From positions 19,179-83,178 of the forward strand of contig CANQCG010000001.1 in NCBI GenBank assembly GCA_947589645.1: a DNA stretch of 64,000 bases, read 5' to 3'. Each line of letters starts with the position of its first letter. Positions within the stretch are counted from its first letter, which is position 1. This DNA comes from an uncultured Clostridia bacterium. Its GTDB lineage: Bacteria > Bacillota > Clostridia > TANB77 > CAG-508. Under the pieces are notes generated by a model, which worked only from the letters and a program-made list of their open reading frames with translations, was not told where the DNA came from and ran no database searches. A program made the translations under genes and the position numbers. Below, piece by piece: positions 12,265 through 61,647 of this stretch.

Positions 12265-12882
12265 ATGAGAAATATTAGTATAAACCTAAAAAAGAAAGAA
12301 AATATCATAAAAATAGAAGAAAATGCAGAACAAAAAAATATAATTAATGAGTTGAATGGTAAGCTACCAAACTTAAAAAGATTGTATAAGGATGAAAAAA
12401 CGCCAATTAGGGTTACAGGAAAAGCATTAAAAAATAGTGAAATGGACGAAATAGAAAATCTTATAAAAAAATATTTAGATGTAGAAATTAGATTTGATTT
12501 ACCAAAAGAGTTAGGCTTATCAGGGATAGTAAAAACTTTTAATCAAACAATAAAAACTTCTGAAACTAGGTTCTATAAAGGTTCTATACGTTCAGGTAAA
12601 AAACTAGAAGCTGAGGGCAGCATAGTAGTTCTAGGAGATGTAAACTCAGGCGCAGAAATTGTGGCAACAGACAATATTGTAGTTTTAGGTTCCTTAAGAG
12701 GCTTAGCACATGCTGGGGCTAAAGGAAACAAAGAGGCAGTTGTATCAGCAGGTAGTTTTGATGCAGTTCAAATAAGGATTGCTAATATTATCAAAGAGAT
12801 AGATAGAGAAGAACAAGAAACACAAATAACACATGCTTATATACATGTGGTGGATGATAAAATAGTAATAGAAGAATGCTAA
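12265..12882 (+). CDS. minC: septum site-determining protein MinC
   Basis: The C-terminal beta-helix repeat is present (GSIRSGKKLEAEGSIVVLGDVNSGAEIVATDNIVVLGSLRGLAHAG). ATG 12265 is placed 7 nt after GTGGAGGA. The track start at 12250 is a GTG inside that RBS. Confidence 0.85.
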   Translation: MRNISINLKKKENIIKIEENAEQKNIINELNGKLPNLKRLYKDEKTPIRVTGKALKNSEMDEIENLIKKYLDVEIRFDLPKELGLSGIVKTFNQTIKTSETRFYKGSIRSGKKLEAEGSIVVLGDVNSGAEIVATDNIVVLGSLRGLAHAGAKGNKEAVVSAGSFDAVQIRIANIIKEIDREEQETQITHAYIHVVDDKIVIEEC

Positions 12883-12888
12883 TAAAAT

Positions 12889-13269
12889 TTAACTAAGTAA
12901 AAGCAAAATAAGTACAATAAAAAGGCCATCATCTTTTACACCTTCTGAATATAGGCAATATATTAGGCTGACTAGTAAAACATCATCCGAATAGATTTTT
13001 AAACCAAATAAATCAAACAAATAATCATAATTTTTGTTTGATTTATTTTTTTGTTCACATTTTCTAAACTCTGCTTGATTACTCAAAGTAGGACCATCTT
13101 TTTGAACATTATTAGAATTTACAGGCACAGGAATTGTAGAGATAGTTTTATTTGTATTAGCCGTAGTTGAATTTTGAAAATCATGATATTTTGGTGGCGT
13201 TCTATAAAAAGGAAAAGGAAAGTTAAAATATGGAGGCCTAGGCATTATGTTGATTCTCCTTTTTGTCAT
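12889..13269 (-). CDS. hypothetical protein (Pro/aromatic-rich N-terminus, hydrophobic C-terminus)
   Basis: ORF from the track. It is convergent with minC and has no recognisable family. The start could be 13245 (MPRPPY). Confidence 0.4.
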   Translation of the reverse strand: MTKRRINIMPRPPYFNFPFPFYRTPPKYHDFQNSTTANTNKTISTIPVPVNSNNVQKDGPTLSNQAEFRKCEQKNKSNKNYDYLFDLFGLKIYSDDVLLVSLIYCLYSEGVKDDGLFIVLILLLLS

Positions 13270-13678
13270 TTTTCATAACTTCTGCAAGTTTAGTAAGATT
13301 AAGTAAATTAGAATATTGATCCACCTTGCTTTTTCTACTATCTCTAAGATATGGCTTCAAAGAATTTAATAAATTACTACCAGGATTGTCTTTTTGATTC
13401 ATAGCATTTATTACAGAGCTCATCTTCATAATTGTTTCTGCATCTAAGTTTAAATTATTATTTGATGAACTATTTGAATTATTATTTCCTTTTAACATAG
13501 AAGAGACATTATTAATCATTTCTGGAGAAACTTGAGAAAGCATGTCATTTAAAGTTTTATTAGAATCTCCATTCTTATTATTTATATTGTTAATCAAGTC
13601 TTGCATTTCACTTGGAATATTTCCGCTATCCACCATTTTCTTTAAAGTATTAAAAGCATCAGTTAAATTATCTGACAT
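13238..13678 (-). CDS. hypothetical Asn/Ser-rich protein
   Basis: The ORF is 146 aa with a low-complexity NNNSNSSSNNN core and an AGGAGG RBS upstream. Confidence 0.45.
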   Translation of the reverse strand: MSDNLTDAFNTLKKMVDSGNIPSEMQDLINNINNKNGDSNKTLNDMLSQVSPEMINNVSSMLKGNNNSNSSSNNNLNLDAETIMKMSSVINAMNQKDNPGSNLLNSLKPYLRDSRKSKVDQYSNLLNLTKLAEVMKNDKKENQHNA

Positions 13679-13938
13679 ATTAATTCCTCCTAAACTGATA
13701 ATATATTATATGTTTTTTTAATACTAATATGATATTCATTAAATTAAAAAGTGTTAAAAAGGTGTAGCCGTATAAAAAAAGACATATTTCTACATTCGAA
13801 TTTTAAAATTTATTTTTTAACAAGTAAGAAACGAGAAACAAAAACTTAACAAAAACGATATATTTTTGTAATATTTTGACGAAATGAGCTTCCGTAAGCA
13901 CAAATTAAGTGAAGCAAAAAAGCTTACAAATAGTTACA

Positions 13939-13966
13939 TTGACAATGAAAAGCCCAAGAGTATAAT
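13939..13966 (+). promoter_or_regulatory. sigma-A-type promoter for the A1-B1 operon (TTGACA - 16 nt - TATAAT)
   Basis: The -35 is TTGACA at 13939..13944 and the -10 is TATAAT at 13961..13966, about 30 nt upstream of the A1 start. Confidence 0.5.
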
Positions 13967-13996
13967 TTATTATAAATAAATATGTTTGGAGGAAAA

Positions 13997-16900
13997 GTTA
14001 TGAAAAACAAAGTATTAAAAATAGCAATAGCAATTGTGCTAATAATGGTTATGACCATGTCAGATTTTATTTTTCTCGGCATGAGTGTAATAGCATATGC
14101 TGAGCAAAATGGCAGTGATGCAACAAATCATGCAAACGTTAAGTTTAGCACGTATTTTAAAGCGGAGGAAAGAAAAGTATCACAGAGCAAAATACAGATG
14201 GATAGCCAAGATATGAAGTTATACATGAACGTATCAGTAAAAAATGAAGGATACTTTGATGGAGTAATAACTTTAGAAAGCAGCAATTTCAAGCTAAAAC
14301 CAGAGAAATTAAGTGAATGCATAAGTAGCATAGAAGGAAACAAAATTATTCTAAACCGTGTAAGAGCTGGCGAAAGCATAGAAATTGAAGTAGGAATAGA
14401 GCCTATAAGAGAAGAAAACTATGGCGAAAATATGCTAGAAAAGATAAGTAAAATAAAACTAACTGGAAGCTATAAAGATAGCACAGAGAAAACTATAAAC
14501 ATAGACGCAACAAAAAATGTAGTTTTAGATTTACTTACACCAAGTAATTTAGACACAGCTTTATCATCACAAGTAATAACAAACAAGATATTTAAAATTG
14601 GTGAAGAAGAAAAAAGAATAGTACAAGTAGAAATAGATTCTACAGTATTACAAAATGCATATCCAATAAAAACTACGAACTTCGAAGTGACATTACCAAA
14701 AGAGGCAGAAGATATAGAAGTAATAGCGAAAGAAACTTCAGCAACAGATGGAAATTTAGATAGAAAATTAAACAATAAAAATTATAGCTATGATAAAGAA
14801 AGTAGCTTGTTAAAACTAGCAATAGAAAACGAAGTAAAAGATGGTAAGATAGTATGGAAACAAGAAGCAAAAGATAGCATAATAGTTACATTTGTTTTGC
14901 CAGTAGAAAAAGAAATAACAGAAGAAGAATATTTAGTAAAATCAAAAGTTGATTTTTATGGTGAGGAACAAACAAAAATAGAGAAAGAAGCAAAATATAA
15001 TTTACAACAAGAGGCAAATGGAATAATAAGAACAGAAGTACAAAACAAAGAAGAGATATACAAAGGAAAAATATATTCAAGAGAAGAAAGAGAATATTTA
15101 ACCCAAACAAATATAGAAATAAACTATTCAAACTTAGTTGAAGGAAACACAGTTGTAGAAAATGTAACATATAAAACAGAAACAGAAGAAAAACAAGCAA
15201 ATATAGAATATAAAACAACTACAATTAATAAGGCAGAAATACAAAAGGTATTAGGAGAAGAAGGAACATTAACATTAAAAAATGGAGCAGAAATAATAGC
15301 AGAAATTACAAATAAGACTGAAGCTAATGAAGAAGGAAACATAGTAATAAATTACAACGCAGGAGTAAAAGAATTAACAATAGAAATTACAAAAGCAGTA
15401 GAAACAGGAATAATAAGATTAAAACATACAAAAGTGATAAAAGAAGAAGCATATACAAAAGATGAAATAGTAGCAATAAAAGGGCTTGTAGAGAGAGCAA
15501 GCGTAAATTACAATTTAGGAGAACAAACATTAGGATATAATTGCGAAAAAGTAACAGAATTAAAAGAAACAAAAACATTAACAGAATTGTCAGTAGCACC
15601 AACTAACTTATCAACAGCAGTAGTAAATGAAGAAGTAAAATTTGCATTAACATTAAAAACAGATAATGAAAAATATGATTTATATAAAAATCCTACAATA
15701 ACAATAAAATTACCAGACTATGTAAAAAATATAGAACTAAAGAAAGCTAATGCCTTATACTTAGAAAGCATGCAAGTGTCAAGATTTTATTATTTAAACA
15801 ATACAAAAGAATTAAAATTAGAATTACAAGGCGAACAAACAAAGTATAATGGAACCAACAATAACATATACATTGAAATTTTATTAAATATAGAATTAGA
15901 GGAAACTATACCAAGTAAAAAAGATGCTATAACATTAACATATACAAACGACAAAGCAGTTACGTATGAAAACGAAGGAAAAGTGCTTGTACCAATAAGT
16001 ATAACAGGAATAAATGGGTTAGTTTCATTTAATAAAATAACAAACTATAATGTAAAAACAAATTCAGTAACAAGTAAAGAAGAACAAATAGCAGATGTAG
16101 AAATGAATAGTATGGCAACTGAAGCAAATGCAGAAATAGCACTTGTAAATAATACTGGAACAAAATTAACAGATGTAAAAGTTTTAGGCAACTTACCAGT
16201 AGATGGAGAGTTTAAATTAGGGAACTATACATTTGAAAACACAATAGGAGCAACATTAAAAAATGGAATAAATGTGCAAAATGAGGCAGCAACTGTGTAT
16301 TATACAGCAAATGAAAATGCAACAAAAGACTTAGGTAATGCAGAAAACGGATGGACAACAAATTTAAATGAGGTAGCAAATCCAGTATTATACATGATAG
16401 TAATACCAAATATGGAAGTAGAAACAAACTTTATAGCAAACTATACAATGAAGGTACCAGCAAACTTACAATATAATAAAGATATGAAAACAACATATAC
16501 AGTAGATTATATAGTAAATGATTCAACTACAACAGTAAATGCAGTACCAGTAGGACTAGAAACAGGAAAAGTAGAAGTACAATTATTAGCAAGTGTAGGT
16601 GGAAACGTAATAGAAAATAACAGCATGGTAAGAGCAGGAGAAGTAATAAAATACACAATAAATGTAACAAATACAGGTAGTAACGATGTACAAAATGTGA
16701 AAGTATCAGCATCAGTACCAGATGGAACAGTATATATAGAGCCACTAGAAAATTCTGTGTATGTAGAACCACTAAACTTATATTATGAAGAAAATGCAGA
16801 AAAGGAAACAGTAGAAGCAACTTTCGAAAATATTAAGGTTAATGAAACAAAAACAGTAGAGTATGAAGTAAGAGTAAAATCTGATGTAACTGAAGAAACA

Positions 16901-18988
16901 GCCTTAAACCAAGCAACAGTTACATATAATGACAATGTGGAAGTAAAATCAAATGAGGTTACTAACTCTTTAAAAGAAGGAAAAGTAAGAATAACTGTAA
17001 AAAGAGGAACAGATACATCATTAGATCTTTTACAATCACAAAATATAGCATATTTTATAATAGTAGAAAATATATCAAACGAAGAAGTTAAAAACTTAGA
17101 AGTAAAAATAAACATACCAGAAGAACTTAAGTTATCTGAAGTTATAGATACAGATATAGAAAGCATATTACCTCTTTCAAATATAATACAAATTGATTCT
17201 ATAAAACCTGACGGAAATAAAGTATATAAAATATTTACGTGCGTAAATAAATCTGACGAAGCACAAAAAGCTACTAATATTACAGCAACAGTAGAACAAA
17301 AAGATGAGAGTATTGTTTATAGATCTAACTCATTTGATGAAATAGTTTATGGCTTTGATATTGATATTACAATGACAGGAACACGAGAAGGAGAATATTT
17401 AAAACCAGAAGATATAATAGAATTTGAAATAACAGTTGTAAATAATTCACTTATTAATGCAATAAACTATGAAGTAACAACTACAATACCAGAGCAATTA
17501 AGTATTAATAAAATAGAAGTTGACGGAGTAGAAGAAGAAAACATAATAGGAAATAATTTTTCAAAAGTATTAGGAGATTTACTTTCTGGCGAAACTATTA
17601 AAATAAAAATAGAAGCAATGGTAAATTATGATCCAACTAGAACAAAAATCGAAACTATTTCAACATCTGCAAATTTAATAAATTCAGGTGTTGTAGAAAA
17701 ACAAACAAATGCAATAGTACATTATTTAGAGGCAATTAAGAAACCTGGAGAGGAAGTGGTAGACCCAGATGACCCAGACAATCCACCAGTAGATCCGCCA
17801 ATAGATCCACCAGAAGACCCAGACAACCCACCAGTAGATCCAGATGATCCAGATAATCCAGATAAGCCACCAGTAGACCCAGATGATCCGGACAACCCAG
17901 ACAACCCAGATAACCCAGATAACCCTCCAACAGTTAATAAATACAGCATATCCGGTAAAGCATGGATAGATAGAAATCAAGATGGTGAACTAAATGAAGA
18001 TGATGCAGTTTTAAAAGATATAAAAGTAAGATTATTAGATTTAGCAACAAATCAATTCGTAAGAAATGATGAGGGAACAAAAGATTTAATTGTAGAAACT
18101 GATGATAATGGAGCATATATATTTGTAAATATAAAAGAAGGAAAATACATTGTAGTATTTGAATATGATACAAGTTTATATAAGCCAACAGATTATCAAA
18201 AACAAGGAGTACAAGAAGCTAATAATTCAAATGTAATTACAAAAACATTAGATATTAATGGCGAAGAACAAGAATATGCAACAACAAATGAAATCGAATT
18301 AAATCAAAACATAGCGAACATAAATATGGGCTTAGCATTTACAAAGAGATTTGATATACAAATAGATAAATATATAACAAAATTAATAGTACAAACTTCA
18401 CAAGGAACAACAACATATGATTATAAAGATAAAGATTTCGCAAGAGTAGAGATAAATGCAAAAAGAATAATAGGATCAAGTATATTAGTACAATATACAA
18501 TAAGGGCAACAAACACAGGAGATGTAGATGCATACATCAATTCACTAGTGGATTATATGCCAAATGACCTAAAATTTAACTCAGAATTAAATAAAGATTG
18601 GTATGAATTAAATGGCAATTTATATACAAGCAGTTTAATGAATACACCAATAGAACCAGGAAAGAGCAAAGAAGTTAATTTAATATTAACAAAGACAAAA
18701 ACAGATGGAAATGCGGAATTAATAAATAATATGGCAGAAATACAAGAAGCATATAACATATATGGAATAATAGATACAAACTCACAAACTGAAAATCAAA
18801 ATAAAGACGAAAACGATTTAGGATCAGCAGATTTATTAATAAGTATACAAACAGGTAGAGCATTTAGCTATATAACTTTAGTAATACTTATGATAGCAGT
18901 AATTGGAATTGCAACTTACTTAATAAATAAAAAATTATTGCATATAGACTCTAATGGAAAGGAGGAAGACATAAATGCAAAAAAATAA
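13997..18988 (+). CDS. giant surface protein A1. It has a signal peptide, DUF11 repeats, a Pro/Asp-rich linker, an SdrD-B-like domain, a further DUF11 repeat and a C-terminal SIQTG motif followed by a TM segment and a basic tail.
   Basis: ATG 13997 follows GGAGGA; the track start 13982 lacks an RBS. The DUF11 signature is VRAGEVIKYTINVTNTGSNDVQNVKVSASVPDGTVY. The SdrD-B-like block runs SGKAWIDRNQDGELNEDD...DDNGAYIFVNIKEGKYIVVFEYD. The C-terminus is ...LLISIQTGRAFSYITLVILMIAVIGIATYLINKK. Confidence 0.85.
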   Translation, partial: VMKNKVLKIAIAIVLIMVMTMSDFIFLGMSVIAYAEQNGSDATNHANVKFSTYFKAEERKVSQSKIQMDSQDMKLYMNVSVKNEGYFDGVITLESSNFKLKPEKLSECISSIEGNKIILNRVRAGESIEIEVGIEPIREENYGENMLEKISKIKLTGSYKDSTEKTINIDATKNVVLDLLTPSNLDTALSSQVITNKIFKIGEEEKRIVQVEIDSTVLQNAYPIKTTNFEVTLPKEAEDIEVIAKETSATDGNLDRKLNNKNYSYDKESSLLKLAIENEVKDGKIVWKQEAKDSIIVTFVLPVEKEITEEEYLVKSKVDFYGEEQTKIEKEAKYNLQQEANGIIRTEVQNKEEIYKGKIYSREEREYLTQTNIEINYSNLVEGNTVVENVTYKTETEEKQANIEYKTTTINKAEIQKVLGEEGTLTLKNGAEIIAEITNKTEANEEGNIVINYNAGVKELTIEITKAVETGIIRLKHTKVIKEEAYTKDEIVAIKGLVERASVNYNLGEQTLGYNCEKVTELKETKTLTELSVAPTNLSTAVVNEEVKFALTLKTDNEKYDLYKNPTITIKLPDYVKNIELKKANALYLESMQVSRFYYLNNTKELKLELQGEQTKYNGTNNNIYIEILLNIELEETIPSKKDAITLTYTNDKAVTYENEGKVLVPISITGINGLVSFNKITNYNVKTNSVTSKEEQIADVEMNSMATEANAEIALVNNTGTKLTDVKVLGNLPVDGEFKLGNYTFENTIGATLKNGINVQNEAATVYYTANENATKDLGNAENGWTTNLNEVANPVLYMIVIPNMEVETNFIANYTMKVPANLQYNKDMKTTYTVDYIVNDSTTTVNAVPVGLETGKVEVQLLASVGGNVIENNSMVRAGEVIKYTINVTNTGSNDVQNVKVSASVPDGTVYIEPLENSVYVEPLNLYYEENAEKETVEATFENIKVNETKTVEYEVRVKSDVTEETALNQATVTYNDNVEVKSNEVTNSLKEGKVRITVKRGTDTSLDLLQSQNIAYFIIVENISNEEVKNLEVKINIPEELKLSEVIDTDIESILPLSNIIQIDSIKPDGNKVYKIFTCVNKSDEAQKATNITATVEQKDESIVYRSNSFDEIVYGFDIDITMTGTREGEYLKPEDIIEFEITVVNNSLINAINYEVTTTIPEQLSINKIEVDGVEEENIIGNNFSKVLGDLLSGETIKIKIEAMVNYDPTRTKIETISTSANLINSGVVEKQTNAIVHYLEAIKKPGEEVVDPDDPDNPPVDPPIDPPEDPDNPPVDPDDPDNPDKPPVDPDDPDNPDNPDNPDNPPTVNKYSISGKAWIDRNQDGELNEDDAVLKDIKVRLLDLATNQFVRNDEGTKDLIVETDDNGAYIFVNIKEGKYIVVFEYDTSLYKPTDYQKQGVQEANNSNVITKTLDINGEEQEYATTNEIELNQNIANINMGLAFTKRFDIQIDKYITKLIVQTSQGTTTYDYKDKDFARVEINAKRIIGSSILVQYTIRATNTGDVDAYINSLVDYMPNDLKFNSELNKDWYELNGNLYTSSLMNTPIEPGKSKEVNLILTKTKTDGNAELINNMAEIQEAYNIYGIIDTNSQTENQNKDENDLGSADLLISIQTGRAFSYITLVILMIAVIGIATYLINKKLLHIDSNGKEEDINAKK
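17752..17930 (+). repeat. tandem short codon repeats encoding the (PDDPDNPPVD)n Pro/Asp linker of A1
   Basis: Reiterated gac cca gat gac cca gac aat cca cca gta units are seen directly. Confidence 0.7.
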
Positions 18989-47631: not shown

Positions 47632-47645
47632 AAAAGTAATTTTTA

Positions 47646-50660: not shown

Positions 50661-51923
50661 CTACAAATTAAATATTGTTTCAAGATAATAGCAATAATTT
50701 CTTAAGAAATTATCAAAGTAAGAAAGAGAGTCTTTTTTAAAAATAGAACTTTCGCAGTAAATATTAAGACTACAAATTTCATTATCGCCTACATAACATT
50801 TCAAAACACCCATATTAGTATTTCTAAGTAAAGGAGCTTCAAAATAGTAGTTACAACTAATATCAATGTTAATATCTTTTATATTTTGGCTATTAATTGG
50901 ATATTTATCATAAGGAAATTCATCCATATATGTAGCAACAGTATTAGAAATACCTTTATTTATATTAAACTGATTTGCTGTTTGCAATTTCCAATTTGAA
51001 AAATTCTCTTTTATTATAGATTTAACATCTACCATTTTAAAATTGGCAAATGCATATTCTATAAGCTTAATGCTATCTTGAGTACGAAATTTTTTAGTAT
51101 CAGCACCTAAAACCACGCAAATAATATCTAAGTCGCCTCGTTTGCAAGCTGTTACTAAACAACGATTAGCACCATTTGTAAATCCTGTTTTTACGCCGTA
51201 AACACCACTTAAATAGCCCAAAAGTTCATTTGTATTATTAATACTTTTTGGAGAACCATTTATATATACTAAATGACTTTTTGTTCCCACAATGCTAGTA
51301 AATTGTTTGTTGTTAAGTGCATATTTAGTAAGAAGCGCAAGCTCATAAGCAGTAGTATAATGTTTATCATTATCTAGACCATGTGGAGTTACAAAATGTG
51401 TATTAGTAAGTCCCAAAATTGAGGCTTTCTTATTCATTAAATTTGCAAAACCCTCAATGTCTCCTCCAACAAATTCGGCTAAAGCAACTGCTGCATCATT
51501 ACCTGAGCATAAAAGCAAGCCATATAGTAAGTCTCGAACTGTAATTTTTGCATTAGAAGTTAGGCCAAGCCTAGATCCACCAGTTCCAGCAGCTTTGGAA
51601 GATACTGTTACAACGGTAGATAGGTCTTTAACATTTTCTAACACAACAATAGAAGTCATAATTTTAGTAGTTGAAGCCATCTTTCTAACATCATTTTCAT
51701 TTTTTCCAAATAAAATAGCTCCAGTAGATTTTTCTATAATAATTGCAGCTCTTGAATTGATATCAGGTATGGAATTTGTTGGAGATACAACTTCTAGAGT
51801 GTCTAAATCTACATCGTCTGAATAATCAATGTCGTCTGCATAACAGACATCAAATAAAAAAGAAAAAATAGACAAAATTAAGCATGCAAATATAAAAATT
51901 GCGTTTAACTTTTTGAAATTCAT
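50661..51923 (-). CDS. D-alanyl-D-alanine carboxypeptidase (S11 family, DacB/DacF-like)
   Basis: It has a signal peptide and the SxxK motif (ASTTKIM). The SGN (CSGN) and KTG (KTGFT) motifs are present, and there is a C-terminal beta domain. RBS AGGTGA. Confidence 0.85.
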   Translation of the reverse strand: MNFKKLNAIFIFACLILSIFSFLFDVCYADDIDYSDDVDLDTLEVVSPTNSIPDINSRAAIIIEKSTGAILFGKNENDVRKMASTTKIMTSIVVLENVKDLSTVVTVSSKAAGTGGSRLGLTSNAKITVRDLLYGLLLCSGNDAAVALAEFVGGDIEGFANLMNKKASILGLTNTHFVTPHGLDNDKHYTTAYELALLTKYALNNKQFTSIVGTKSHLVYINGSPKSINNTNELLGYLSGVYGVKTGFTNGANRCLVTACKRGDLDIICVVLGADTKKFRTQDSIKLIEYAFANFKMVDVKSIIKENFSNWKLQTANQFNINKGISNTVATYMDEFPYDKYPINSQNIKDINIDISCNYYFEAPLLRNTNMGVLKCYVGDNEICSLNIYCESSIFKKDSLSYFDNFLRNYCYYLETIFNL

Positions 51924-52207: not shown

Positions 52208-55200
52208 ATGAAAAAACAAACGGTATTCAAAAAATTATTATCAAGCATAATAGTAGCAATTATTGTCTTGGGAAACTTTAGTAGCTATAGATTAATATCT
52301 GATGCTGCATTAATAACTACTGAAGGTGATGGACCATTATATTTATCATTATCACCAACTAACGAACATGATAATGGATATGCTATTGCAGTAGACCAAG
52401 GAGAAATTATTTGGAACATTGTATCACATAGTAATGAAGAAGGCTCAAACTCAACATTTGCCTCAAACTTATATTGTATAAAGGCTCATGATGGTGGAAC
52501 TTGGTCAGGAGGAGACTCAATAGGAACACCTTCAAGTGTAATTAAGTACAATAAAAGATATAATGTACCACTAGGTGAAGAATTAATAAAAATTAATGGG
52601 GATGCAATTGCATTACAAGGAAAATATAAAAATGAATTACTTTGGTTAATAGACCACTTATTTGTAGAAGGTGAATCAGATTTAATACAATTTTTGGCCC
52701 AAGCTGATATATTCCCAGATCCAGATGAAGGAGAAGGTTATTATTACTTTAAGTCTTATAACCATGAAGATTATGGAGGAAATTATAATTCTGATGCGTA
52801 CCAAGAAACAGCCACAGAAGAGGATATATTAGCAATACAACAAGCAGCTATTTGGTATTTTACAAACTATGGGCTAAATTCTCAGCATTTTAACCAAATA
52901 CATCATGGAGCAGAGTGGCTTGAAATTGCAACAAAACAACAGTTAGAACAAACTCCAAATAAATATACTTTACTTTCTAATTACCCTAATCCAAAAGAAC
53001 ACGAAGGTAGAGCAATGCATTGCAATGCTATATACAATTACTTAATAGATGAAGCTACTAAAGTAGCTGCTGAATATAATAAAAGAGGAGAAACATATCA
53101 ACTAAAAAATTCAACAGCAACATTATGGCTATCTGCAGATGAAAATGGAAATATTAAACAAGAACAACCAGTTATAGAAGTACATAAAACTCCAAAACAA
53201 TTCGATTTAGCATTAAGAAAAGCAATAGTATCAGTTGAAAATGGCACAGTTATAAATGAAACTGGAGAAGATGCCAAAAGAAATATCGAAATAGATGAAA
53301 CAACATTAAATAATGGAGATGGAGATACAAAAACAGACACAGCAACATACAAACATAGAAAAGACCCAGTACTTGTAGAAAAAGATGATATAGTAACTTA
53401 TTCAATAACAATATACAATGAGGGAGAGCAAGATGGATATGCATCAGAAATAATAGACCAATTACCATTAGGTTTAAGATTACTAGATAATCAACCTCAA
53501 ACGGTAACCTCAACTTTAAAAAATGAATATAAGGTAGAATATATGGCATCAGAGCATAAGATAAAAATTACTAATCAAGAAACGCCAAAAACAATACCAG
53601 CATATAATGGAGTAACATTATCATCAGATTCAATACAAATAAAATGCAAAGTAGAAACAGAACCAGAAGATCTAGATTCTACTGAAAAAATTACTCTAAC
53701 TAATATAGCATATATCTCAAAAGAATATAATTCAGAAACAGGGCAAACTATTGAAAAACAGCCTGACTTAGATAGAGATTCAGAGCCAGGTACAGCACCA
53801 ACTAAAACTTATACTGATTTAAGAACCACTGGAAACGACAAAGGTTATATAGGAAATAGTGAAAATCAAAGCTTAAGATTATCAGACCCAAATGCATATT
53901 TCAAAGGTGAACAAGACGATGATGATTTTGAAAAATTAGTAATATTACCTAAAGACACATATAATTTACAAATAATAAAAGTAGATAGCAAAGATGAAGG
54001 CAAAAAGTTAGCAGGGGCAAAATTTACCATTACAGTAAATGGAGAAGATCCACAAACTTTAACAACAGATTCAGATGGTTTAATAACATTAAATGGTTTG
54101 AAATTATCAACAAAAGGAACACAAACAATAGTTATAGATGAAATTCAAGCACCAAATGGTTATAATAAAATATTAACCGAAGCAATAACAATAGAAGTAA
54201 CAGTAGACTTAGTAGATGGAAAATATACAGTAACAAGTGCTGTACAAAAAAATTCTACTTCTACAGGAGAAAAAGTTACATTAATTAATGGAACAATAAA
54301 AACAATAAAAGTAACAATACCAAATGAAAAGATAACAGGTTCATATAACATAAAAGTTGTAAAAGAGGACTTAAAAGGAAACAAATTAGCAGGAGCTAAA
54401 TTTAAAATAGAGCAAATAGATGTGGCAAATGGTAATGTACTTAAAACATATGATAATCTAACTACAACAGACGACGGAATAGTAGAAACAGGAAATATCG
54501 AAATACCTGCAGAAGGAACATATAGATATAAAATTACAGAGTTACAAGCACCAAACCATTATATTAATAAAGGTGTACCTACAATAATAGATGTAACAGC
54601 AACTATAGTAGGTGGAGCATATCAGGTTACATATAAAGAAGTATCTGGAGAAGAAAAAGCAATAGTAAAAGAAGGAAATACTATTCAAATAACAATAGAT
54701 AATACACCAATTTTTGATTTAAGTTTAAGAAAATATATAAGAGAAGTTGACGGAATTCCAGTAGAAAATAGCAGAGTACCACGCATTGATACAACAAAAT
54801 TACAAGAGGTAACAGATACAACAGCAGAATATAAACATAGAAAAGATGCTGTTTTAGTAGAAAATGGAAGTGTTGTAACATATAACATAAGTATTTATAA
54901 CGAAGGCTACATGGACGGAATTGCAAGCGTAATAAAAGACCAATTACCAACAGGTCTAGTACTAGATTTAATAAGTTTACAATCTGAAACAGTACAAGGA
55001 AAATTGCAATATTACGTAACAACCTCAAAAGGTAATAAATACATAGTAACTTATGATGAAAGTACAAATTTAGTAACATTTACATTAGATACTAACACAA
55101 CAGCTAAAAACTTAAAAGCTTACGATGATGGAAATACTTTAGATTCAGATACAATCGCAATCAAATGCATAGTAAATCAAGTAGCAGATACACAAAAAAA

Positions 55201-58108
55201 TATATATTTAACAAATATAGCATATATATATGAAGCAAAAGATGAGCAAGGAACCATAATAAAAGATCAAAAAGGAAAAGACAGAGATTCAGAACCATAT
55301 ACACATCCAGGTGAAACAGCAGATGATTTAAAGAAAGTTGGAGATGACAAAGAGGAGCAAGAAGGTTATATAGGAAATACTGATAACGAAGATTTAGAAC
55401 AAAAAGATCCTGATTCATACTTTAAAGGTGAACAAGATGACGATGACTTTGAAAAATTAGTAATTGTACCAAAAACATTTGATTTAAAACTAATAAAATT
55501 CATAGCAGCTGTAAATGGCGAATCAACTGGAAACAGAGTATTAAGTGTAGATACATCAAATTTAGGAAACGGAGAAAATGGAACCGAAACAACAGCTAAA
55601 TATATACTAGAGAAAAAACCAGTAGGAGTTAAAGCAGGAGATTTTGTAACATACACAATAAGAGTTTACAACGAAGGTGATTATGACGGATATGCTACAG
55701 AAATTTCAGAGGATATACCACAAGGATTAGAATTTATAGTAGTAACAGACGGAAATATACTTTACTCTTGGGATGGAAAGACACAAACTGATATTACAGA
55801 TCAAATTAAAGATTCAGATATGTATGAAGAAATAATTAGAGTAAACTCAAATTGGGGTTCAGATTTTAAATCTACAATAATTACAACTAAAGCATTAAGC
55901 GAAGATTTAATAAAAGGTTTTGGACAAAAAGATGTACAATATGCTGATAGCGAAAACAAAATAGACTACAAAGAAATACAAGTAATATTTAGAGTAAAAG
56001 ATGATGTAGAACCTAATGTTACAATAAGAAATGAAGCAGCAATATCAGAAGATAAAGCTGTACAAAATAATCAAGAAGTAGACATAGACGACAGAGATTC
56101 AACACCTGGAAATACAGATGACACATGGAAAAAAGAAGACTCTGACAAACATTATGATAAAGAAGAAAAATGGCCTATATATGAAGAAGATGATGAAGAT
56201 TATGATAATATTATAACTAAATCATTTGACTTAAGTTTAAGAAAGCAAATTGTAAAAATAAATGATGCAATTTATACAAACAGATTTGCAAAATTAGATG
56301 AAAAAGGCGAATATGATGATACATTATATGATTATTATGATGTATATGCACACACACCAAAAGTAAAAGCAGGAGATATAGTTACTTATTCAATAAAAGT
56401 ATACAATGAAGGCGAAATAGATGGATATGCTTCATTAATAGTAGACGAATTACCATCTGGCTTAGAATTTTATTCAAGCATATATAATGATATAGATTAT
56501 GGTTGGACATTAGTAGAAGGAAGCAAAAACTTATATCAAACAGATTATCTATCATACGAAAATGATGTAAAAAGAGGAACTATAGGAACAAAAGATTCAA
56601 CATTATTAAAAGCTTATACAGGAGAAGGAGAGGCTTCATACCAAGAAATCTTTATAGTATGTAAGGTAAAAGATGATGTAACAAAGAACGACTCATTACT
56701 AAATGTTGCACAAATAGCAGATGATAGTGATGAAAATGGAAAACCAATAAAAGATAAAGATTCAGAGCCAGGTAATAAAGACGACGAGAAACAATGGAAA
56801 GATGAAGACGACCTAGATATAGAAAACTTAGAGTTACAAGAATTCGATTTAGCATTAAGAAAATTCATAACTAAAGTAGAAAATGGAGAAAACGTAAAAG
56901 ATGTAACAACAAGAATTCCACAAGTAAGTTATGATAAAGATAAGCAACAATTAGTATATACACATCCAAAAGATGCTTTAGTAGTACATGTAGGAGATAC
57001 AGTAATATATACAATAAGAGTATATAATGAAGGTGACATAGATGGATATGCTGCAGAAGTTAAAGATGATTTACCAGAATATCTAGAATATTTACCAGAA
57101 CATAATACAAACAAAAAATATGAATGGGTAATGTATGATAAAGACGGAAATGTTACAGAAAATGTAGCAGACGCAGTATGCATAAGAACCACATATTTAG
57201 CAAAGGGAAATGGAGCAGAGAAAGAACAAGAAAATGCAAACTTATTAAAAGCATTTGATCCAAATGCAGAAATAAGTGATAATAACCCAGATTATAGAGA
57301 CATAGAAGTAGCTTTCAAAGTAAAAGACCCAAATAGTAGTGAATATGAAATAGTAAACTTTGCAGAAATATCAGAAGACACAGACAAAGATGGAGAGCCA
57401 ATAAAAGACAAAGACTCAGATACAGATAACGGAGATGGAGAGCCAAAAGAAGACGACGAAGATATTGAAAAAGTAAAAGTTGAGTATTTCGATTTAAGCT
57501 TACTAAAATATGTAACAAAAGTATTAGTAAATGAAAACGGTGTAGAGAGAACAATGGAAACAGGCAATACCGGAAATGACGAAACCGACATTATACCACA
57601 TGTACAAATAAACAAGAAAAACATAGATAAAACAGTAGTAAAATTTGTATATACAATAAAAATAACGAATGAAGGACAAATAGCAGGTGAGGCTACAGAA
57701 ATAACAGACTATGTACCAGCAGGTTTAAGATTTGTGGCAGAAGACAATGAATTGTGGACAGATGAAGGAAATAATATAATATCAACAAGGCAATTAGAAG
57801 GTACTATATTACAGCCAGGAGAAAGTGCAGAAGTAGAAGTTGTATTAAGATGGATAAATGGTGATGATAATTTAGGACCAAAAACTAACGTAGCAGAAAT
57901 ATCAGAAGACCATAATGATGAAGATGTACCAGATAAAGACTCAACACCAGATAATGAAGAACCAGGAGAAGACGATATAGATGATGCAACAGTACTATTA
58001 TCAGTAAATCAAGGTGGGGGAATCCAAAGCATATATACAAACTTAATAGTAACTTTCTTAGTAATAATATTAGTTGGAGGAATTCTAATTAAGAGATTTG
58101 TATTATAA
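52208..58108 (+). CDS. giant surface adhesin C. It has a signal peptide, an N-terminal thioester domain (TED) signature, six DUF11 repeats each ending in a KDKDSEPGN-type motif, two SpaA/CnaB-type domains and a C-terminal SVNQGGG motif followed by a TM segment and a basic tail.
   Basis: Cys90 is in NLYCIKAHDG and Gln211/212 in LAIQQAAIWYFTNYG. DUF11 blocks look like FDLALRKAIVSV...KDDIVTYSITIYNEGEQDGYASEIIDQLPLGLRLL. Prealbumin blocks look like KLAGAKFTITVNGEDPQTLTTDSDGLITLNGL. The C-terminus is ...VLLSVNQGGGIQSIYTNLIVTFLVIILVGGILIKRFVL. AAGGAG RBS. Confidence 0.85.
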   Translation: MKKQTVFKKLLSSIIVAIIVLGNFSSYRLISDAALITTEGDGPLYLSLSPTNEHDNGYAIAVDQGEIIWNIVSHSNEEGSNSTFASNLYCIKAHDGGTWSGGDSIGTPSSVIKYNKRYNVPLGEELIKINGDAIALQGKYKNELLWLIDHLFVEGESDLIQFLAQADIFPDPDEGEGYYYFKSYNHEDYGGNYNSDAYQETATEEDILAIQQAAIWYFTNYGLNSQHFNQIHHGAEWLEIATKQQLEQTPNKYTLLSNYPNPKEHEGRAMHCNAIYNYLIDEATKVAAEYNKRGETYQLKNSTATLWLSADENGNIKQEQPVIEVHKTPKQFDLALRKAIVSVENGTVINETGEDAKRNIEIDETTLNNGDGDTKTDTATYKHRKDPVLVEKDDIVTYSITIYNEGEQDGYASEIIDQLPLGLRLLDNQPQTVTSTLKNEYKVEYMASEHKIKITNQETPKTIPAYNGVTLSSDSIQIKCKVETEPEDLDSTEKITLTNIAYISKEYNSETGQTIEKQPDLDRDSEPGTAPTKTYTDLRTTGNDKGYIGNSENQSLRLSDPNAYFKGEQDDDDFEKLVILPKDTYNLQIIKVDSKDEGKKLAGAKFTITVNGEDPQTLTTDSDGLITLNGLKLSTKGTQTIVIDEIQAPNGYNKILTEAITIEVTVDLVDGKYTVTSAVQKNSTSTGEKVTLINGTIKTIKVTIPNEKITGSYNIKVVKEDLKGNKLAGAKFKIEQIDVANGNVLKTYDNLTTTDDGIVETGNIEIPAEGTYRYKITELQAPNHYINKGVPTIIDVTATIVGGAYQVTYKEVSGEEKAIVKEGNTIQITIDNTPIFDLSLRKYIREVDGIPVENSRVPRIDTTKLQEVTDTTAEYKHRKDAVLVENGSVVTYNISIYNEGYMDGIASVIKDQLPTGLVLDLISLQSETVQGKLQYYVTTSKGNKYIVTYDESTNLVTFTLDTNTTAKNLKAYDDGNTLDSDTIAIKCIVNQVADTQKNIYLTNIAYIYEAKDEQGTIIKDQKGKDRDSEPYTHPGETADDLKKVGDDKEEQEGYIGNTDNEDLEQKDPDSYFKGEQDDDDFEKLVIVPKTFDLKLIKFIAAVNGESTGNRVLSVDTSNLGNGENGTETTAKYILEKKPVGVKAGDFVTYTIRVYNEGDYDGYATEISEDIPQGLEFIVVTDGNILYSWDGKTQTDITDQIKDSDMYEEIIRVNSNWGSDFKSTIITTKALSEDLIKGFGQKDVQYADSENKIDYKEIQVIFRVKDDVEPNVTIRNEAAISEDKAVQNNQEVDIDDRDSTPGNTDDTWKKEDSDKHYDKEEKWPIYEEDDEDYDNIITKSFDLSLRKQIVKINDAIYTNRFAKLDEKGEYDDTLYDYYDVYAHTPKVKAGDIVTYSIKVYNEGEIDGYASLIVDELPSGLEFYSSIYNDIDYGWTLVEGSKNLYQTDYLSYENDVKRGTIGTKDSTLLKAYTGEGEASYQEIFIVCKVKDDVTKNDSLLNVAQIADDSDENGKPIKDKDSEPGNKDDEKQWKDEDDLDIENLELQEFDLALRKFITKVENGENVKDVTTRIPQVSYDKDKQQLVYTHPKDALVVHVGDTVIYTIRVYNEGDIDGYAAEVKDDLPEYLEYLPEHNTNKKYEWVMYDKDGNVTENVADAVCIRTTYLAKGNGAEKEQENANLLKAFDPNAEISDNNPDYRDIEVAFKVKDPNSSEYEIVNFAEISEDTDKDGEPIKDKDSDTDNGDGEPKEDDEDIEKVKVEYFDLSLLKYVTKVLVNENGVERTMETGNTGNDETDIIPHVQINKKNIDKTVVKFVYTIKITNEGQIAGEATEITDYVPAGLRFVAEDNELWTDEGNNIISTRQLEGTILQPGESAEVEVVLRWINGDDNLGPKTNVAEISEDHNDEDVPDKDSTPDNEEPGEDDIDDATVLLSVNQGGGIQSIYTNLIVTFLVIILVGGILIKRFVL

Positions 58109-58217: not shown

Positions 58218-58246
58218 TTGACTACAAAAAATGGTTATGATATAAT
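58218..58246 (+). promoter_or_regulatory. consensus sigma-A promoter (TTGACT - 17 nt - TATAAT)
   Basis: The -35 is at 58218..58223 and the -10 at 58241..58246. It is followed by GAGGTG and a 15-codon uORF, then the membrane-protein gene. Confidence 0.55.
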
Positions 58247-58300
58247 CAATTTCAGTAAAATGTAAGAGGTGAAAGTACATGAATCAAATTCTTGATACAA

Positions 58301-58993
58301 ATGAAAACAAGCGGGAAAAAGCATAGAAAAATGGTAGATTCTCAAAAAATAATTATATTTTTTGCAATTTTTATTGTTATATTTGCAATATGTTTAATTG
58401 GAATAGGTGCCAATTTACTTATGAAGGTACGTAGTAATGAGCCTAAAAACGAAGGCAATATTACACAAGAACCTAATACTCCACAAGAAAATCCAACTGA
58501 ACCAAACATAAACATAACATTTGAAGGTGGAGAGCCAGGACAAGTAAAAGTAATTGTAGCAAGCGATAAAGATATACAAAATATAGATTATTGGTGGGAT
58601 GATGAAGCTCCAACAACAGTACAACCAAATGATAAAAAATACGAAATGGTAATTTCTTCTAAACAAGGAACTCATAAATTAAATGTAGAAGTTACAGATA
58701 TAGATGGCAACAAAAAAACGTCAGACCAGCTTGTTATAGGTGATTCAGTACCTGAACTACAACTAGGAGTAGATGGAGTAAGTAATTATGTAATTAAAGC
58801 AACTGATGACGAACAAATTAAAAAGATAGTAATAGTGCTAAATGGAGAAACTCAAGAAATCGAAGTTAATGAGAAAGAATTTGAATATAAAGTGCCAATA
58901 CCAGAAGGAGACAGTGTAATAGAAGTTACTGCTTATAATTTAAATGGATTATCAGTTAATAAAAAAGGTAAAGTAAATAACTTTAGACGTTAA
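58301..58993 (+). CDS. hypothetical membrane-anchored protein with two beta-sandwich-like repeats. The start is ambiguous (ATG 58301 or ATG 58331; the track shows TTG 58292).
   Basis: Its N-terminal TM segment (IIIFFAIFIVIFAICLIGIGANLL) is followed by a ~190-aa extracytoplasmic region. The strong RBS upstream instead serves a 15-codon uORF (58279..58326, MNQILDTNENKREKA) in another frame. Confidence 0.55.
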   Translation: MKTSGKKHRKMVDSQKIIIFFAIFIVIFAICLIGIGANLLMKVRSNEPKNEGNITQEPNTPQENPTEPNINITFEGGEPGQVKVIVASDKDIQNIDYWWDDEAPTTVQPNDKKYEMVISSKQGTHKLNVEVTDIDGNKKTSDQLVIGDSVPELQLGVDGVSNYVIKATDDEQIKKIVIVLNGETQEIEVNEKEFEYKVPIPEGDSVIEVTAYNLNGLSVNKKGKVNNFRR

Positions 58994-59006: not shown

Positions 59007-59939
59007 ATGCTAAAAGAAATTTATATAATAGATGATGATGAAACTTCTCTAGTGGTGTTTAAATCATTATTTAAAAATGACGAAGATTATAAATTTATTA
59101 GTGTAAAATCAGAACAAATAGATGTTGCACTTAATAACATACCATCATTAATAATAATAAATGAAGATGCAATAAAACGTGATATAGTAGAATTATGCAA
59201 GCAAATAAGAAGAAATGAAGATAATAATATTACTCCAGTTATAGTTGTTTCTTCAAACTTAGAAAAAAGTCATAGATTACAAATATTGCAAGAATCTATA
59301 GAATATTATATAAAAAAACCAGTAGATGAAGAATATTTATATCATACAATTAAAAATTTAGAAAGATTATTATCAATAAATAGAACAATAAGCCCATTAA
59401 CAGGTTTGCCAGGAAATGTACAAATACATGCAGAATTAAAAAAGAGACTAACTAAGAAAGAAGAATTTGCAGTATTATATATAGATTTAGACAATTTTAA
59501 AGCTTATAATGATGCATATGGCTTCTTAAAGGGAGATCAAATTATACAATTTACTGCTGACACTATTTTAAGTTCAATTCATAATTTCTATACAGAAGGA
59601 ACATTTATTGGACATATTGGAGGCGATGATTTTATTGCAATCACGCCATATAAAAGTATTGACAGTCTATGCCAAACAATTATAGCTACATTTGATGTTG
59701 GGGTTAAAAAATTTTTTACAAAGGAAGACCAAGAAAAAGGTTATATTGAAGTAGCAAATAGAAAGGGAGTCATTGAACAATTCCATTTAACTTCAGTTTC
59801 AATAGCAGTAGTTGTAGCCGATAAAGATAGATTTAATAATATATTGGAAATAGGAGAAGTAAGCACACAGGTAAAACATTTAGCTAAGTCTATTTCAGGA
59901 AGTAGTTATGCAATAGATAGAAGAAGAGAATACGAATAA
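59007..59939 (+). CDS. pseudo-receiver plus GGDEF-domain protein with a GGDDF motif and no I-site
   Basis: The REC-like N-terminus has Asn at the phospho-acceptor position (SLIIINED). The GGDEF domain is recognisable from PLTGLPGN, AVLYIDLDNFKAYNDAYGFLKGDQII and GHIGGDDFIAI. RBS AGGAGGA. Confidence 0.75.
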   Translation: MLKEIYIIDDDETSLVVFKSLFKNDEDYKFISVKSEQIDVALNNIPSLIIINEDAIKRDIVELCKQIRRNEDNNITPVIVVSSNLEKSHRLQILQESIEYYIKKPVDEEYLYHTIKNLERLLSINRTISPLTGLPGNVQIHAELKKRLTKKEEFAVLYIDLDNFKAYNDAYGFLKGDQIIQFTADTILSSIHNFYTEGTFIGHIGGDDFIAITPYKSIDSLCQTIIATFDVGVKKFFTKEDQEKGYIEVANRKGVIEQFHLTSVSIAVVVADKDRFNNILEIGEVSTQVKHLAKSISGSSYAIDRRREYE

Positions 59940-59969
59940 AACATTTACATATAAAACAAGAATAAATAT

Positions 59970-60016
59970 AAAAAGCTTTCATATAAATATATTATATATT
60001 TATATGGAGGCTTTTT
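59970..60016 (+). terminator. long imperfect hairpin (23-nt arms) ending in GCTTTTT immediately before the cwlD ATG. The cwlD GGAGG RBS lies inside its 3' arm.
   Basis: AAAAAGCTTTCATATAAATATAT / ATATATTTATATGGAGGCTTTTT. It acts as a terminator for the GGDEF gene, but it sequesters the cwlD Shine-Dalgarno. Confidence 0.5.
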
Positions 60017-60730
60017 ATGATTATATTAAGTAAAAGAAGAATCACATTAATTTTAACTTGTGTACTTGTAGGAATTTGTGCATTTATGCTAAAAAGTTCG
60101 CAAACAGATTTAGATGTAGTTCCTACAGTTACACTTCCTGTAAGCGGAAAAACTATAGTTATAGATGCAGGACATGGAAAACCGGATGAAGGTGCAGAAA
60201 GTTCTCAAGGAACGACAGAAGCGCAAACTAATCTAGCCATAGCATTAAAATTGCAAAATTTACTAGAGAGTAGTGGATGTACCGTAATATTAACTAGGTC
60301 AGATGAAAATGCAATCTATGATATAGATAGCAAAACATTGAGACAAAAAAAGATATCAGACATACATAATAGAGTAAAAATAGGAAATGAAAGCCAAGCT
60401 GATATTTTTGTATCCATACATTTAAATAAAATTCCTCAGCAACAATATTATGGTTGGCAATGTTTCTACAAAGAAGGAAATGCAGAGGGGCAAAAATTAG
60501 CCGTTTCAATACAGGAAAATTTAAATAATGCAATTCAAAAACAAAATAATAGAGTTGCACACACAATAGATAATGTATATATAATAAAACATGTTGAGAT
60601 ACCTACAACTATAGTTGAATGTGGATTTTTATCAAATCCAGAAGAAGAAAAACAATTATTAAGTGATGACTACCAAAATAGATTAGCTTGGGGAATATAT
60701 AATGGAATAATAAATTATTTTTATAAATAA
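60017..60730 (+). CDS. cwlD: germination-specific N-acetylmuramoyl-L-alanine amidase CwlD (Amidase_3)
   Basis: A 237-aa protein with an N-terminal TM segment, VIDAGHGKPDEGA, LTRSDEN and ADIFVSIHLN motifs. Its size and architecture match CwlD. Confidence 0.8.
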   Translation: MIILSKRRITLILTCVLVGICAFMLKSSQTDLDVVPTVTLPVSGKTIVIDAGHGKPDEGAESSQGTTEAQTNLAIALKLQNLLESSGCTVILTRSDENAIYDIDSKTLRQKKISDIHNRVKIGNESQADIFVSIHLNKIPQQQYYGWQCFYKEGNAEGQKLAVSIQENLNNAIQKQNNRVAHTIDNVYIIKHVEIPTTIVECGFLSNPEEEKQLLSDDYQNRLAWGIYNGIINYFYK

Positions 60731-60785
60731 ATTACAAATAAAATGATAACTTCTCCGATTTATTTACAAAATTTTGCTTGAAGCA

Positions 60786-60814
60786 TTGACTTTTTGGCAC
60801 TTTGAGTATATTAT
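60786..60814 (+). promoter_or_regulatory. sigma-A-type promoter for minD-minE-rodA (TTGACT - 17 nt - TATTAT)
   Basis: The -35 is at 60786..60791 and the -10 at 60809..60814, 40 nt upstream of the minD ATG. Confidence 0.5.
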
Positions 60815-60855
60815 TATATAGAAAAAGTGTTGAAAAAATCCTAAGGAGGGAAATT

Positions 60856-61647
60856 ATGGGAGAAGTTATAGTTATTACATCAGGAAAAGGCGGAGTAGGA
60901 AAAACAACAACAACAGCAAATTTAGGGTCAAGCTTAGCACTTGAAGGAAAAAAAGTCGTATTAATAGATACAGATATAGGTCTTCGTAATTTAGATGTAG
61001 TTATGGGACTTGAAAACAGAATAGTATACGACATAGTAGACGTTGTTGAAGGTAAATGTAAATTAAGACAAGCTCTTATAAAAGATAAAAGGTTCAAAGA
61101 GCTTTATTTATTACCAGCCGCACAAACACGAGATAAAAGCGCAGTAAATGAGGAACAAATGAGAGAACTTACAAGTAAATTAAAAGAAGAGTTTGATTAC
61201 ATACTTGTAGATTGCCCAGCAGGAATTGAACAAGGGTTTAAAAATGCTATAGCAGGAGCAAATCGCGCAATAGTAGTAACTACAGCGGAAATATCATCAA
61301 TTAGAGATGCTGACAGAATAATAGGATTGCTAGAATCTTCAGATATAAAAAATCCAGAATTAGTTGTAAATAGAATCAGACCTAATATGGTAAAAAAGGG
61401 TGAAATGATGGATGTTGATGACATAGTTGATTTACTATCTATAGATTTAATAGGAGTTATACCAGATGACGAATATATAATAACCCAGACTAATAAAGGT
61501 GAACCAGTAATTCAAAACAAAAAAGCCCCATCAGGAAAGGCATACTTAGAAATAGCCAAAAGAGTTTTAGGTGAAAATATTGAAGTTAGTATACCTGGAA
61601 GAGAAAAAGGTTTTTTCTCAAAAATTAAAAGTATATTCAAAAAATAA
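60856..61647 (+). CDS. minD: septum site-determining ATPase MinD
   Basis: MGEVIVITSGKGGVGKTT is the deviant Walker A, with a C-terminal amphipathic helix (KGFFSKIKSIFKK). ATG 60856 follows AAGGAGGG. The track start is further upstream. Confidence 0.9.
   Translation: MGEVIVITSGKGGVGKTTTTANLGSSLALEGKKVVLIDTDIGLRNLDVVMGLENRIVYDIVDVVEGKCKLRQALIKDKRFKELYLLPAAQTRDKSAVNEEQMRELTSKLKEEFDYILVDCPAGIEQGFKNAIAGANRAIVVTTAEISSIRDADRIIGLLESSDIKNPELVVNRIRPNMVKKGEMMDVDDIVDLLSIDLIGVIPDDEYIITQTNKGEPVIQNKKAPSGKAYLEIAKRVLGENIEVSIPGREKGFFSKIKSIFKK

Follow-up and report, generated by a model that had tools for sequence, protein, structure and literature searches.

We analyzed a 64,000-nucleotide stretch of DNA from an uncultured Clostridia bacterium (hereafter the window), in which the cell-division gene minC lies far from minD and minE. 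Between the stop codon of minC (12882) and the first base of minD (60856) there are 47,973 bp, so that the contiguity which is typical of minCDE clusters, though not defining for them, is absent. The first-pass annotation of the window had interpreted the interval as an accessory island inserted into a division operon. This interpretation does not hold: the split is present in 80/80 relatives, the interval contains core genes and has native composition, and neither an integrase nor boundary repeats were found. Comparison of gene orders instead suggests, with a probability that we put at roughly 0.8, that the split is old and arose by a chromosomal rearrangement in the ancestor of the clade, the 48 kb being a composite and not a recently inserted island.

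Separation of minC from minD-minE-rodA in the window and in its relatives

Genes were identified by listing open reading frames (ORFs) and by Pfam and NCBIfam searches of the window proteins. All three Min proteins pass these family tests and contiguity alone is missing, and the window thus represents a lineage with a split min locus. MinC matches PF03775 (MinC_C, E=3.3e-31, residues 108-208), the C-terminal beta-helical domain that binds MinD, and scores 99.4 bits against TIGR01222 (cutoff 95.25). MinD, with the N-terminus MGEVIVITSGKGGVGKTTTTA, is a ParA/MinD-type ATPase with a deviant Walker A motif; its gene reads MGEVIVITSGKGGVGKT... from the start at 60856, and the sources of its relatives, which are 86-96% identical, name them MinD. 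MinE scores 63.5 bits against TIGR01215 (cutoff 49.3).

The minC start codon is probably the ATG at 12265. A GGAGG ribosome-binding site lies 8 nt 5' of this ATG, overlapping the PBP2 stop codon, and where the identical sequence has been annotated publicly (loci L177-L179), this codon is taken as the start of a protein of 205 amino acids (aa). An exact look-up of MinC read from the alternative GTG at 12250 gave no match, because the public calls begin at ATG 12265. MinE is about twice as long as usual, with 185 aa in the window and a median of 197 aa (range 65-238) in 75 related ORFs (loci L094-L176). Past residue ~95 it consists of a low-complexity tail of about 90 aa that is rich in E, K, N and D.

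In the first-pass annotation, minC was described as the end of a radC-mreB-mreC-mreD-PBP2-minC string and minD-minE-rodA as resuming at 60856, about 48 kb away, and the family matches and the measured gap confirm this description. The left junction, PBP2-minC-s126-s146-Adh1 (s126 and s146 being small minus-strand ORFs and Adh1 the first giant surface-protein gene; Table 1), recurs in three independent same-species metagenome assemblies (L177-L179). Likewise, the right junction, in which a response regulator-GGDEF gene (RR-GGDEF) and cwlD precede minD-minE, recurs in three such assemblies (L001-L003). Because both recur in independent assemblies, the junctions are no assembly artefact. Leftover minD or minC pseudogenes at the junctions were considered and rejected, since s126 and s146 fill the one and a 125-nt promoter region fills the other.

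Relatives on the minC side were collected by scanning GTDB representative genomes, one for each species, with MinC, which yielded at least 80 loci. The full-length MinC identity of 60-74% across 80 species argues for purifying selection on this protein. The 80 relatives are metagenome-assembled genomes (MAGs) of uncultured gut Clostridia from human, chicken, goat, roe deer and rabbit hosts, with record labels that include 'Clostridium sp. CAG:343', '28_17' and '26_22'. They may belong to the GTDB order TANB77 (family CAG-508). Gene order was determined by tblastn of all window proteins against the 80 minC loci. On the minD side, exact-protein look-ups and 80 metagenome loci together gave more than 85 contexts. 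The sequences of the relatives cover at most 10 kb on each side of minC or minD.

The order (UvrD-M23-mecA)-radC-mreBCD-PBP2-minC-s146, with s146 on the opposite strand 200-860 nt 3' of minC, was found in 80/80 relatives. In none of these 80, of which 68 extend at least 9 kb downstream, does minD, minE or rodA follow minC in the sequence covered, and minC was absent from the sequence covered upstream of minD (up to 10 kb) in all of the more than 85 minD loci. Adjacency of minC and minD, which the first-pass annotation had proposed to look for in related genomes, was thus not seen, and the split shared by all 80 corresponds to the outcome that it had named as pointing to an ancestral order. Among the 70 loci that extend at least 6 kb downstream, 62 have an Adh1-like and then an Adh2-like gene after s146. 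Eight (e.g. L049, L055, L060, L068, L074, L081, L083) continue directly with spoIIE-WG-h409-acpS-tatD-UDG in the order of the window. Because the split is common to all 80 relatives and the genes between its two halves are mostly core and sporulation genes, an old rearrangement and no recent island is indicated.

The minD-minE-rodA(-dus) module is constant in all related loci, and its upstream neighbor varies, with at least eight contexts. In the closest relatives (L097, L099, L100, L103, L104) cwlD lies directly 5' of minD, and h233-RR_GGDEF-...-cwlD-minD was found in L097 and L103, the right-hand part of the interval being common to the closest relatives only. Other neighbors are ksgA (L084-L089), a LamG protein beside POR genes (L090, L091), adh_short (L096), OGG with acpS-tatD 8.7 kb upstream (L145), and, in L164, a gene for an SDF symporter, where UDG and h364 are found 3-6 kb ahead of minD. 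Locus L155 (1-10800) has the order PSP1 / s126(-) s146(-) spoIIE(+) minD(+) without minC, and spoIIE abuts minD. In four separate lineages (L155, L164, L145 and the window), minD is therefore located downstream of genes of the post-minC block and is co-oriented with them.

Further observations concern these minD contexts. In L155, genes for a response regulator, a histidine kinase and a signal peptidase, followed by holB and PSP1, stand where minC does elsewhere, the break lying between minC and s126, and spoIIE appears frameshifted in this contig. An M23 peptidase gene lies about 3 kb 5' of minD in some 20 contigs (L108, L110-L114, L117, L127, L129-L131, L133, L134, L136, L142-L144, L150, L154, L156, L158). 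Two of these contigs, L111 and L136, were examined, and in both an M50 peptidase gene and one unknown gene stand between it and minD. This M23-M50 pair resembles spoIVFA/spoIVFB and recalls the minCD-spoIVFAB neighborhood of Bacillus subtilis. In several of L084-L089 (~11460-12640), which come from independent assemblies, the gene calls break rodA into two ORFs, one of 181 or 225 aa and one of 128 aa; the gene may truly be frameshifted or split, or an assembly error may have recurred.

A probable promoter of minD-minE-rodA

A putative sigma-A-type promoter that matches the consensus at 10/12 positions lies 5' of minD, with transcription predicted to start near 60821, about 35 nt 5' of the minD ATG. 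The first-pass annotation had noted this TTGACT-17-TATTAT sequence (60786..60814) and had argued that minD acquired it through the insertion. The sequence is indeed present, and the view that minD has a promoter of its own is supported by its relatives. The pattern TTGAC(N)-16..18-TAnnnT occurs in the 220 nt 5' of minD in 76/78 related loci, as compared to 2.9% of a background that comprised all 220-nt windows of the same loci. Its form is nearly always TTGACT-17-TAT(T/G/C)AT, mostly 64-118 nt ahead of the ATG, and it is kept whatever gene lies upstream (cwlD, ksgA, LamG, spoIIE and others). Its acquisition through an insertion was not borne out: since the motif is clade-wide, the promoter would be as old as the clade and no recent gain. 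A hairpin that clearly resembles a terminator lies 5' of the motif in L084, L087 and L090.

On this comparative evidence, minD-minE-rodA is very probably transcribed as a unit of its own, from a sigma-A-type promoter, in all members of the clade. A joint transcript of minC and minD appears implausible because read-through would have to cross 48 kb and the eight minus-strand genes that this interval carries. The earlier proposal that minC expression has been uncoupled from that of minDE thus appears probable from the physical separation and the conservation of the motif.

Content and composition of the 48-kb interval

The features of the window are listed in Table 1. The contents that had been named for the interval at first pass, namely two convergent small ORFs, five giant proteins (1641-2014 aa), tRNAs and a split ORF6N gene, were all found. 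The interval is a composite of four components. The first is a clade-conserved core block of s126/s146, spoIIE, WG, h409, acpS, tatD, UDG and h364. To this are added housekeeping, sporulation and envelope genes (the M16 pair, the tRNAs, dac, RR-GGDEF and cwlD), lineage-variable, tandemly duplicated giant surface proteins of the sortase type, which total about 27 kb, and a remnant of about 3 kb that looks phage-like. Variability within the interval seems confined to the genes for giant surface proteins and to this remnant.

Table 1. Features of the window (+, forward strand; -, reverse strand).
Feature	Position	Strand	Basis or remark
RadC	6955-7662	+	Pfam
MreB	7683-8702	+	Pfam MreB_Mbl
MreC	8738-9553	+	Pfam
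MreD	9579-10112	+	Pfam
PBP2	10127-12250	+	Pfam PBP_dimer+Transpeptidase
minC	12265-12882	+	ATG start (alternative GTG 12250); Pfam MinC_C, TIGR01222
s126	12889-13269	-	Small ORF, converges on minC; 118 aa in the public gene calls (L177-L179)
s146	13238-13678	-	Small helical protein, clade-specific, adjoins minC
Adh1	13982-18988	+	Giant surface protein
Adh2	18975-25019	+	Giant surface protein
Adh3	25292-30217	+	Giant surface protein
Adh4	30236-35623	+	Giant surface protein
spoIIE	35851-38301	+	Pfam
WG-repeat protein	38468-39997	+	Pfam
h409	40010-41239	+	409-aa protein without family match
acpS	41267-41641	+	Pfam
tatD	41654-42436	+	Pfam
UDG (uracil-DNA glycosylase)	42491-43051	+	Pfam
h364	43127-44221	-	364-aa protein without family match
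M16 (insulinase-type) peptidase pair	44433-47018	+	Peptidase_M16, M16_C matches
Phage-like remnant (~3 kb)	47073-50017	-	Includes h98; Pfam, PHROG repressor/anti-repressor matches
HTH_3+DUF4825 regulator	47646-48803	-	Pfam
ORF6N anti-repressor-like gene	48991-49743 + 49730-50017	-	Two overlapping ORFs; Pfam, PHROG 4792
tRNA-Cys(GCA)	50391-50464	-	ARAGORN, Rfam RF00005
tRNA-Gly(GCC)	50489-50564	-	ARAGORN, Rfam RF00005
S11 D-Ala-D-Ala carboxypeptidase (dac)	50661-51923	-	Peptidase_S11 E=8e-65
Adh5	52208-58108	+	1966 aa; DUF11 E=5e-32 in 5 stretches
h233	58292-58993	+	ORF
Response regulator-GGDEF	59007-59939	+	Pfam
cwlD	60017-60730	+	TIGR02883 spore_cwlD 224.2 bits (cutoff 221.55)
Putative promoter of minD-minE-rodA (sigma-A-type)	60786-60814	+	TTGACT (60786-60791)-17 nt-TATTAT (60809-60814)
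minD	60856-61647	+	AAA_31, CbiA, ParA, MipZ matches
minE	61672-62229	+	PF03776 E=3e-23, residues 22-93; 185 aa
rodA	62242-63348	+	Pfam/NCBIfam
dus-like ORF	from 63358	+	After rodA

None of the testable features of a genomic island, namely a recombinase gene, att repeats, an atypical base composition and a patchy occurrence, was found for the interval. Pfam, NCBIfam and PHROG searches of all its ORFs of at least 80 aa revealed neither an integrase nor a transposase or recombinase. A repeat search (12000-62000) detected no direct repeats on either side of the interval, at 12882 and 60856, and returned only adhesin-internal repeats and chance AT-rich inverted pairs. The tRNAs, at 50.4-50.6 kb, lie inside the interval and not at its boundary. 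The first-pass annotation had suggested comparing GC skew and codon usage between the block and its flanks. In GC content and codon usage the interval matches them: GC is 0.282 in the interval and likewise in the left flank, with 0.307 on the right (window ~28%), and per-gene values of GC at third codon positions (GC3) and synonymous-usage distances overlap those of flank genes. GC skew climbs steadily across the window save for a dip at ~47-53 kb over the minus-strand gene cluster. An 'empty' minC-minD site was found in 0/80 relatives, the adhesin sub-block alone being patchy (absent in 8/70).

The small genes next to minC differ in their conservation. The minC stop codon is 6 nt from that of the convergent s126, which encodes a protein rich in proline at the N-terminus and hydrophobic at the C-terminus, is matched by tblastn in 31/80 relatives and is much less conserved than s146. 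For s146, 1427 homologs were found, none of them with a Pfam domain. Its N- and C-terminal helices are strongly conserved (including ...LLxSLKPYLRDSRKxKxDQYxNLLN...) and are joined by a variable, N/S-rich linker. AlphaFold2 with a 38-sequence alignment gave an all-helical model of low confidence (predicted local distance difference test score 61, predicted template modeling score 0.22). Pfam, NCBIfam, PHROGs and PDB sequence searches with s126, s146, h409, h364, h98 and h233 returned no match.

Matches to DUF11, SdrD_B or SpaA were obtained for four of the five giant proteins. Adh1-Adh4 constitute two diverged tandem pairs (Adh1/Adh3 49% and Adh2/Adh4 40% aa identity) and carry signal peptides and C-terminal transmembrane anchors. 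The duplication of Adh1-Adh2 and Adh3-Adh4 is an old tandem one with a period of ~11.3 kb and 70-80% nucleotide identity in patches, and PDDPDNP-type proline/aspartate repeats are common to Adh1 and Adh3 (17735-17908, 29054-29194). The adhesin C-termini (SIQTG... or ITPPTG..., a transmembrane helix and a K/R tail) resemble what we take to be clostridial sortase sorting signals. Adh5 contains 5-6 internal DUF11 repeats (repeat families D2 and D3). A perfect 12/12 promoter match (TTGACA-16-TATAAT, 13939-13966) lies just 5' of Adh1, and an 11/12 match with extended TG (58218-58246) lies 5' of h233. No riboswitch, for c-di-GMP or another ligand, was detected ahead of the adhesin genes by an Rfam gathering scan, which found only the two tRNAs. 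The pilus cluster reported for TANB77, an abundant uncultured gut clade, differs, and no link between it and the window adhesins could be made (PMC11680825).

The phage-like remnant has the lowest GC of the interval (0.21-0.27) and lies beside tRNA-Cys/tRNA-Gly without an integrase. Its ORF6N gene is broken by a frameshift at 49730-49743, within an A-run. The NCBIfam matches of dac to Dac families are all below the equivalog cutoffs. In the gap between RR-GGDEF and cwlD, a near-perfect palindrome (59962-60024; 31 nt, 87% complementary, 1 nt between the arms) overlaps the cwlD start region; it was also detected as a 20-pair terminator-like hairpin.

Origin of the split and comparison with known systems

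According to the explanation that we favor, minC would have been parted from minD-minE-rodA by a chromosomal rearrangement in the common ancestor of the uncultured, low-GC gut Clostridia that form this large clade. minC would have remained the last gene of the mreBCD-PBP2 operon, closely coupled to PBP2, and minD-minE-rodA would have become, or already have been, an independent unit transcribed from a conserved promoter of the sigma-A type. A colinear ancestral order would be the most parsimonious, with minC, s126/s146 on the minus strand, spoIIE and further core genes, and then minD, because minD follows post-minC block genes in the same orientation in four lineages. Individual lineages may later have enlarged, shrunk or broken the minC-minD interval separately. 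Several points weigh against this explanation. The colinear ancestor is derived from four lineages, one of which (L155) is without minC beside s126, and the loci compared are in-clade relatives and one distant locus, L093. This canonical comparator has a MinC of 37% identity and is partly misassembled. A terminator scan found no plus-strand intrinsic terminator just 3' of minC. Moreover, parts of the interval, namely the adhesin genes and the ORF6N/HTH segment, could have been gained by horizontal transfer, although composition gives no such sign.

Three other explanations were considered. The five giant surface-protein genes, two tRNAs, split ORF6N gene and helix-turn-helix regulator are features frequent in islands, and the adhesin block is absent from 8/70 relatives. 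This would fit a horizontally acquired island of ~48 kb that recently interrupted a previously intact minCDE operon between minC and minD, with the promoter gained afterwards. Such an event is very improbable in view of the split in 80/80 related species, the core genes in conserved order that make up much of the interval, the native composition and codon usage, the lack of an integrase, a transposase and bounding repeats, the internal position of the tRNAs and the clade-wide minD promoter motif. Alternatively, minD-minE-rodA(-dus) may behave like a mobile module that moved repeatedly, in which case the 48 kb spacing and the shared orientation in the window would be coincidental. The eight or more upstream contexts among relatives with MinD 87-95% identical, the invariant minC side and a promoter that would allow the module to function anywhere are compatible with this. 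We nevertheless consider it unlikely: the placement of minD after, and co-oriented with, the post-minC block in four lineages would not be expected from independent placements, and no mobility genes flank the module. Finally, the window could be a chimeric contig in which assembly or binning joined unrelated regions, given that metagenome assemblies are the only source of genomes of this lineage and that repeated adhesin genes misassemble easily. This can hardly be the case, as each junction is present in three independent assemblies, the s146-adhesin and spoIIE-...-UDG-h364 orders are reproduced in dozens of other MAGs, and no relative has minD after minC.

The apparent 48 kb island is thus better described as a lineage-wide, ancient change of gene order and should not be catalogued as mobile DNA. 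It should be noted that the physiological consequence of the split may be nil. A more far-reaching and rather doubtful idea is that an order-level clade of uncultured, sporulating gut Clostridia has rewired its Min system. minC would then occur only as the tail of the elongasome operon, minDE would be expressed with rodA from a dedicated conserved promoter, MinE would carry a long, E/K-rich disordered tail, and spoIIE and s146 would be set between the min halves. If this were true, the cell could vary the MinC:MinDE ratio, for instance to relieve polar inhibition by MinC at sporulation septation, and MinDE might have a role that is independent of MinC. In any case, these abundant uncultured gut bacteria show three peculiarities that can be tested: a min locus in two parts, a MinE with a long tail and the constant presence of s146 beside minC.

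In B. subtilis, minC and minD are adjacent within the mreBCD-minCD-spoIVFA-spoIVFB region, and there is no minE. For minCD of this species, PMC12548448 cites Lee & Price 1993. The window resembles this arrangement in that its min genes lie amid morphogenesis and sporulation genes, and spoIVF-like M23/M50 genes are found 5' of minD in ~20 contigs. It differs from it in that minC and minD are parted, minE is present and the order relative to the spoIVF-like genes is another. Among Clostridia, Clostridium beijerinckii has a contiguous minCDE beside mreBCD (PMC6362236), and minCDE with possible polarity onto rodA is reported for Clostridioides difficile (PMC12548448). We found no description of a split minC/minDE in Clostridia in the literature, the contiguous cluster being the norm there. 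On each side of the break, the window retains the gene set, order and orientation of the canonical clostridial radC-mreBCD-(PBP2)-minCDE-rodA-mgsA cluster, with PBP2 directly 5' of minC and rodA directly 3' of minE. The canonical order for comparison is that of L093 (PBP-minC-minD-minE(94 aa)-rodA-mgsA), in which minC and minD are 27 nt apart as against 47,973 nt in the window, MinE has 94 as against 185 aa, and rodA is followed by mgsA and not by dus. The MinD gene of L093 (3287-4507; P0001, GCA_029782595.1) was the top MinD match, an ORF of 406 aa in which segments of MinD are duplicated. This probably reflects a misassembly; minC of the same contig is split into two ORFs. P0001 was rejected as a close MinD homolog, being distant and partly misassembled, and was kept as a gene-order comparator only.

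With tRNA-associated islands and integrative elements the interval shares large surface-protein genes, tRNAs and a repressor/anti-repressor pair. Unlike these, it has no recombinase, att repeats or compositional deviation, its tRNAs are internal, and as a whole it is shared across species and is not patchy in distribution. The closest parallel is found in Helicobacter, where minC is separated from minDE in all species and the interaction of MinC with MinD has been kept (Chiou et al. 2013, PMC3731275). Both cases combine the presence of all three Min proteins, a minC apart from minDE and lineage-wide conserved flanks, as would be expected of an old, stable rearrangement. Helicobacter, however, is a Gram-negative epsilonproteobacterium, and its flanks (nlpD/lpxC and ilvC/dprA) are unrelated to those described here. 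Moreover, in the window minC still ends the mreBCD-PBP2 operon and minDE is still joined to rodA, all within one 64 kb stretch. In this comparison, MinC of the window, which scores above the TIGR01222 cutoff, shows no unusual divergence. The clade would thus represent a second, Gram-positive and spore-forming case of minC uncoupled from minDE, in which the minDE-rodA unit keeps a strongly conserved promoter motif.

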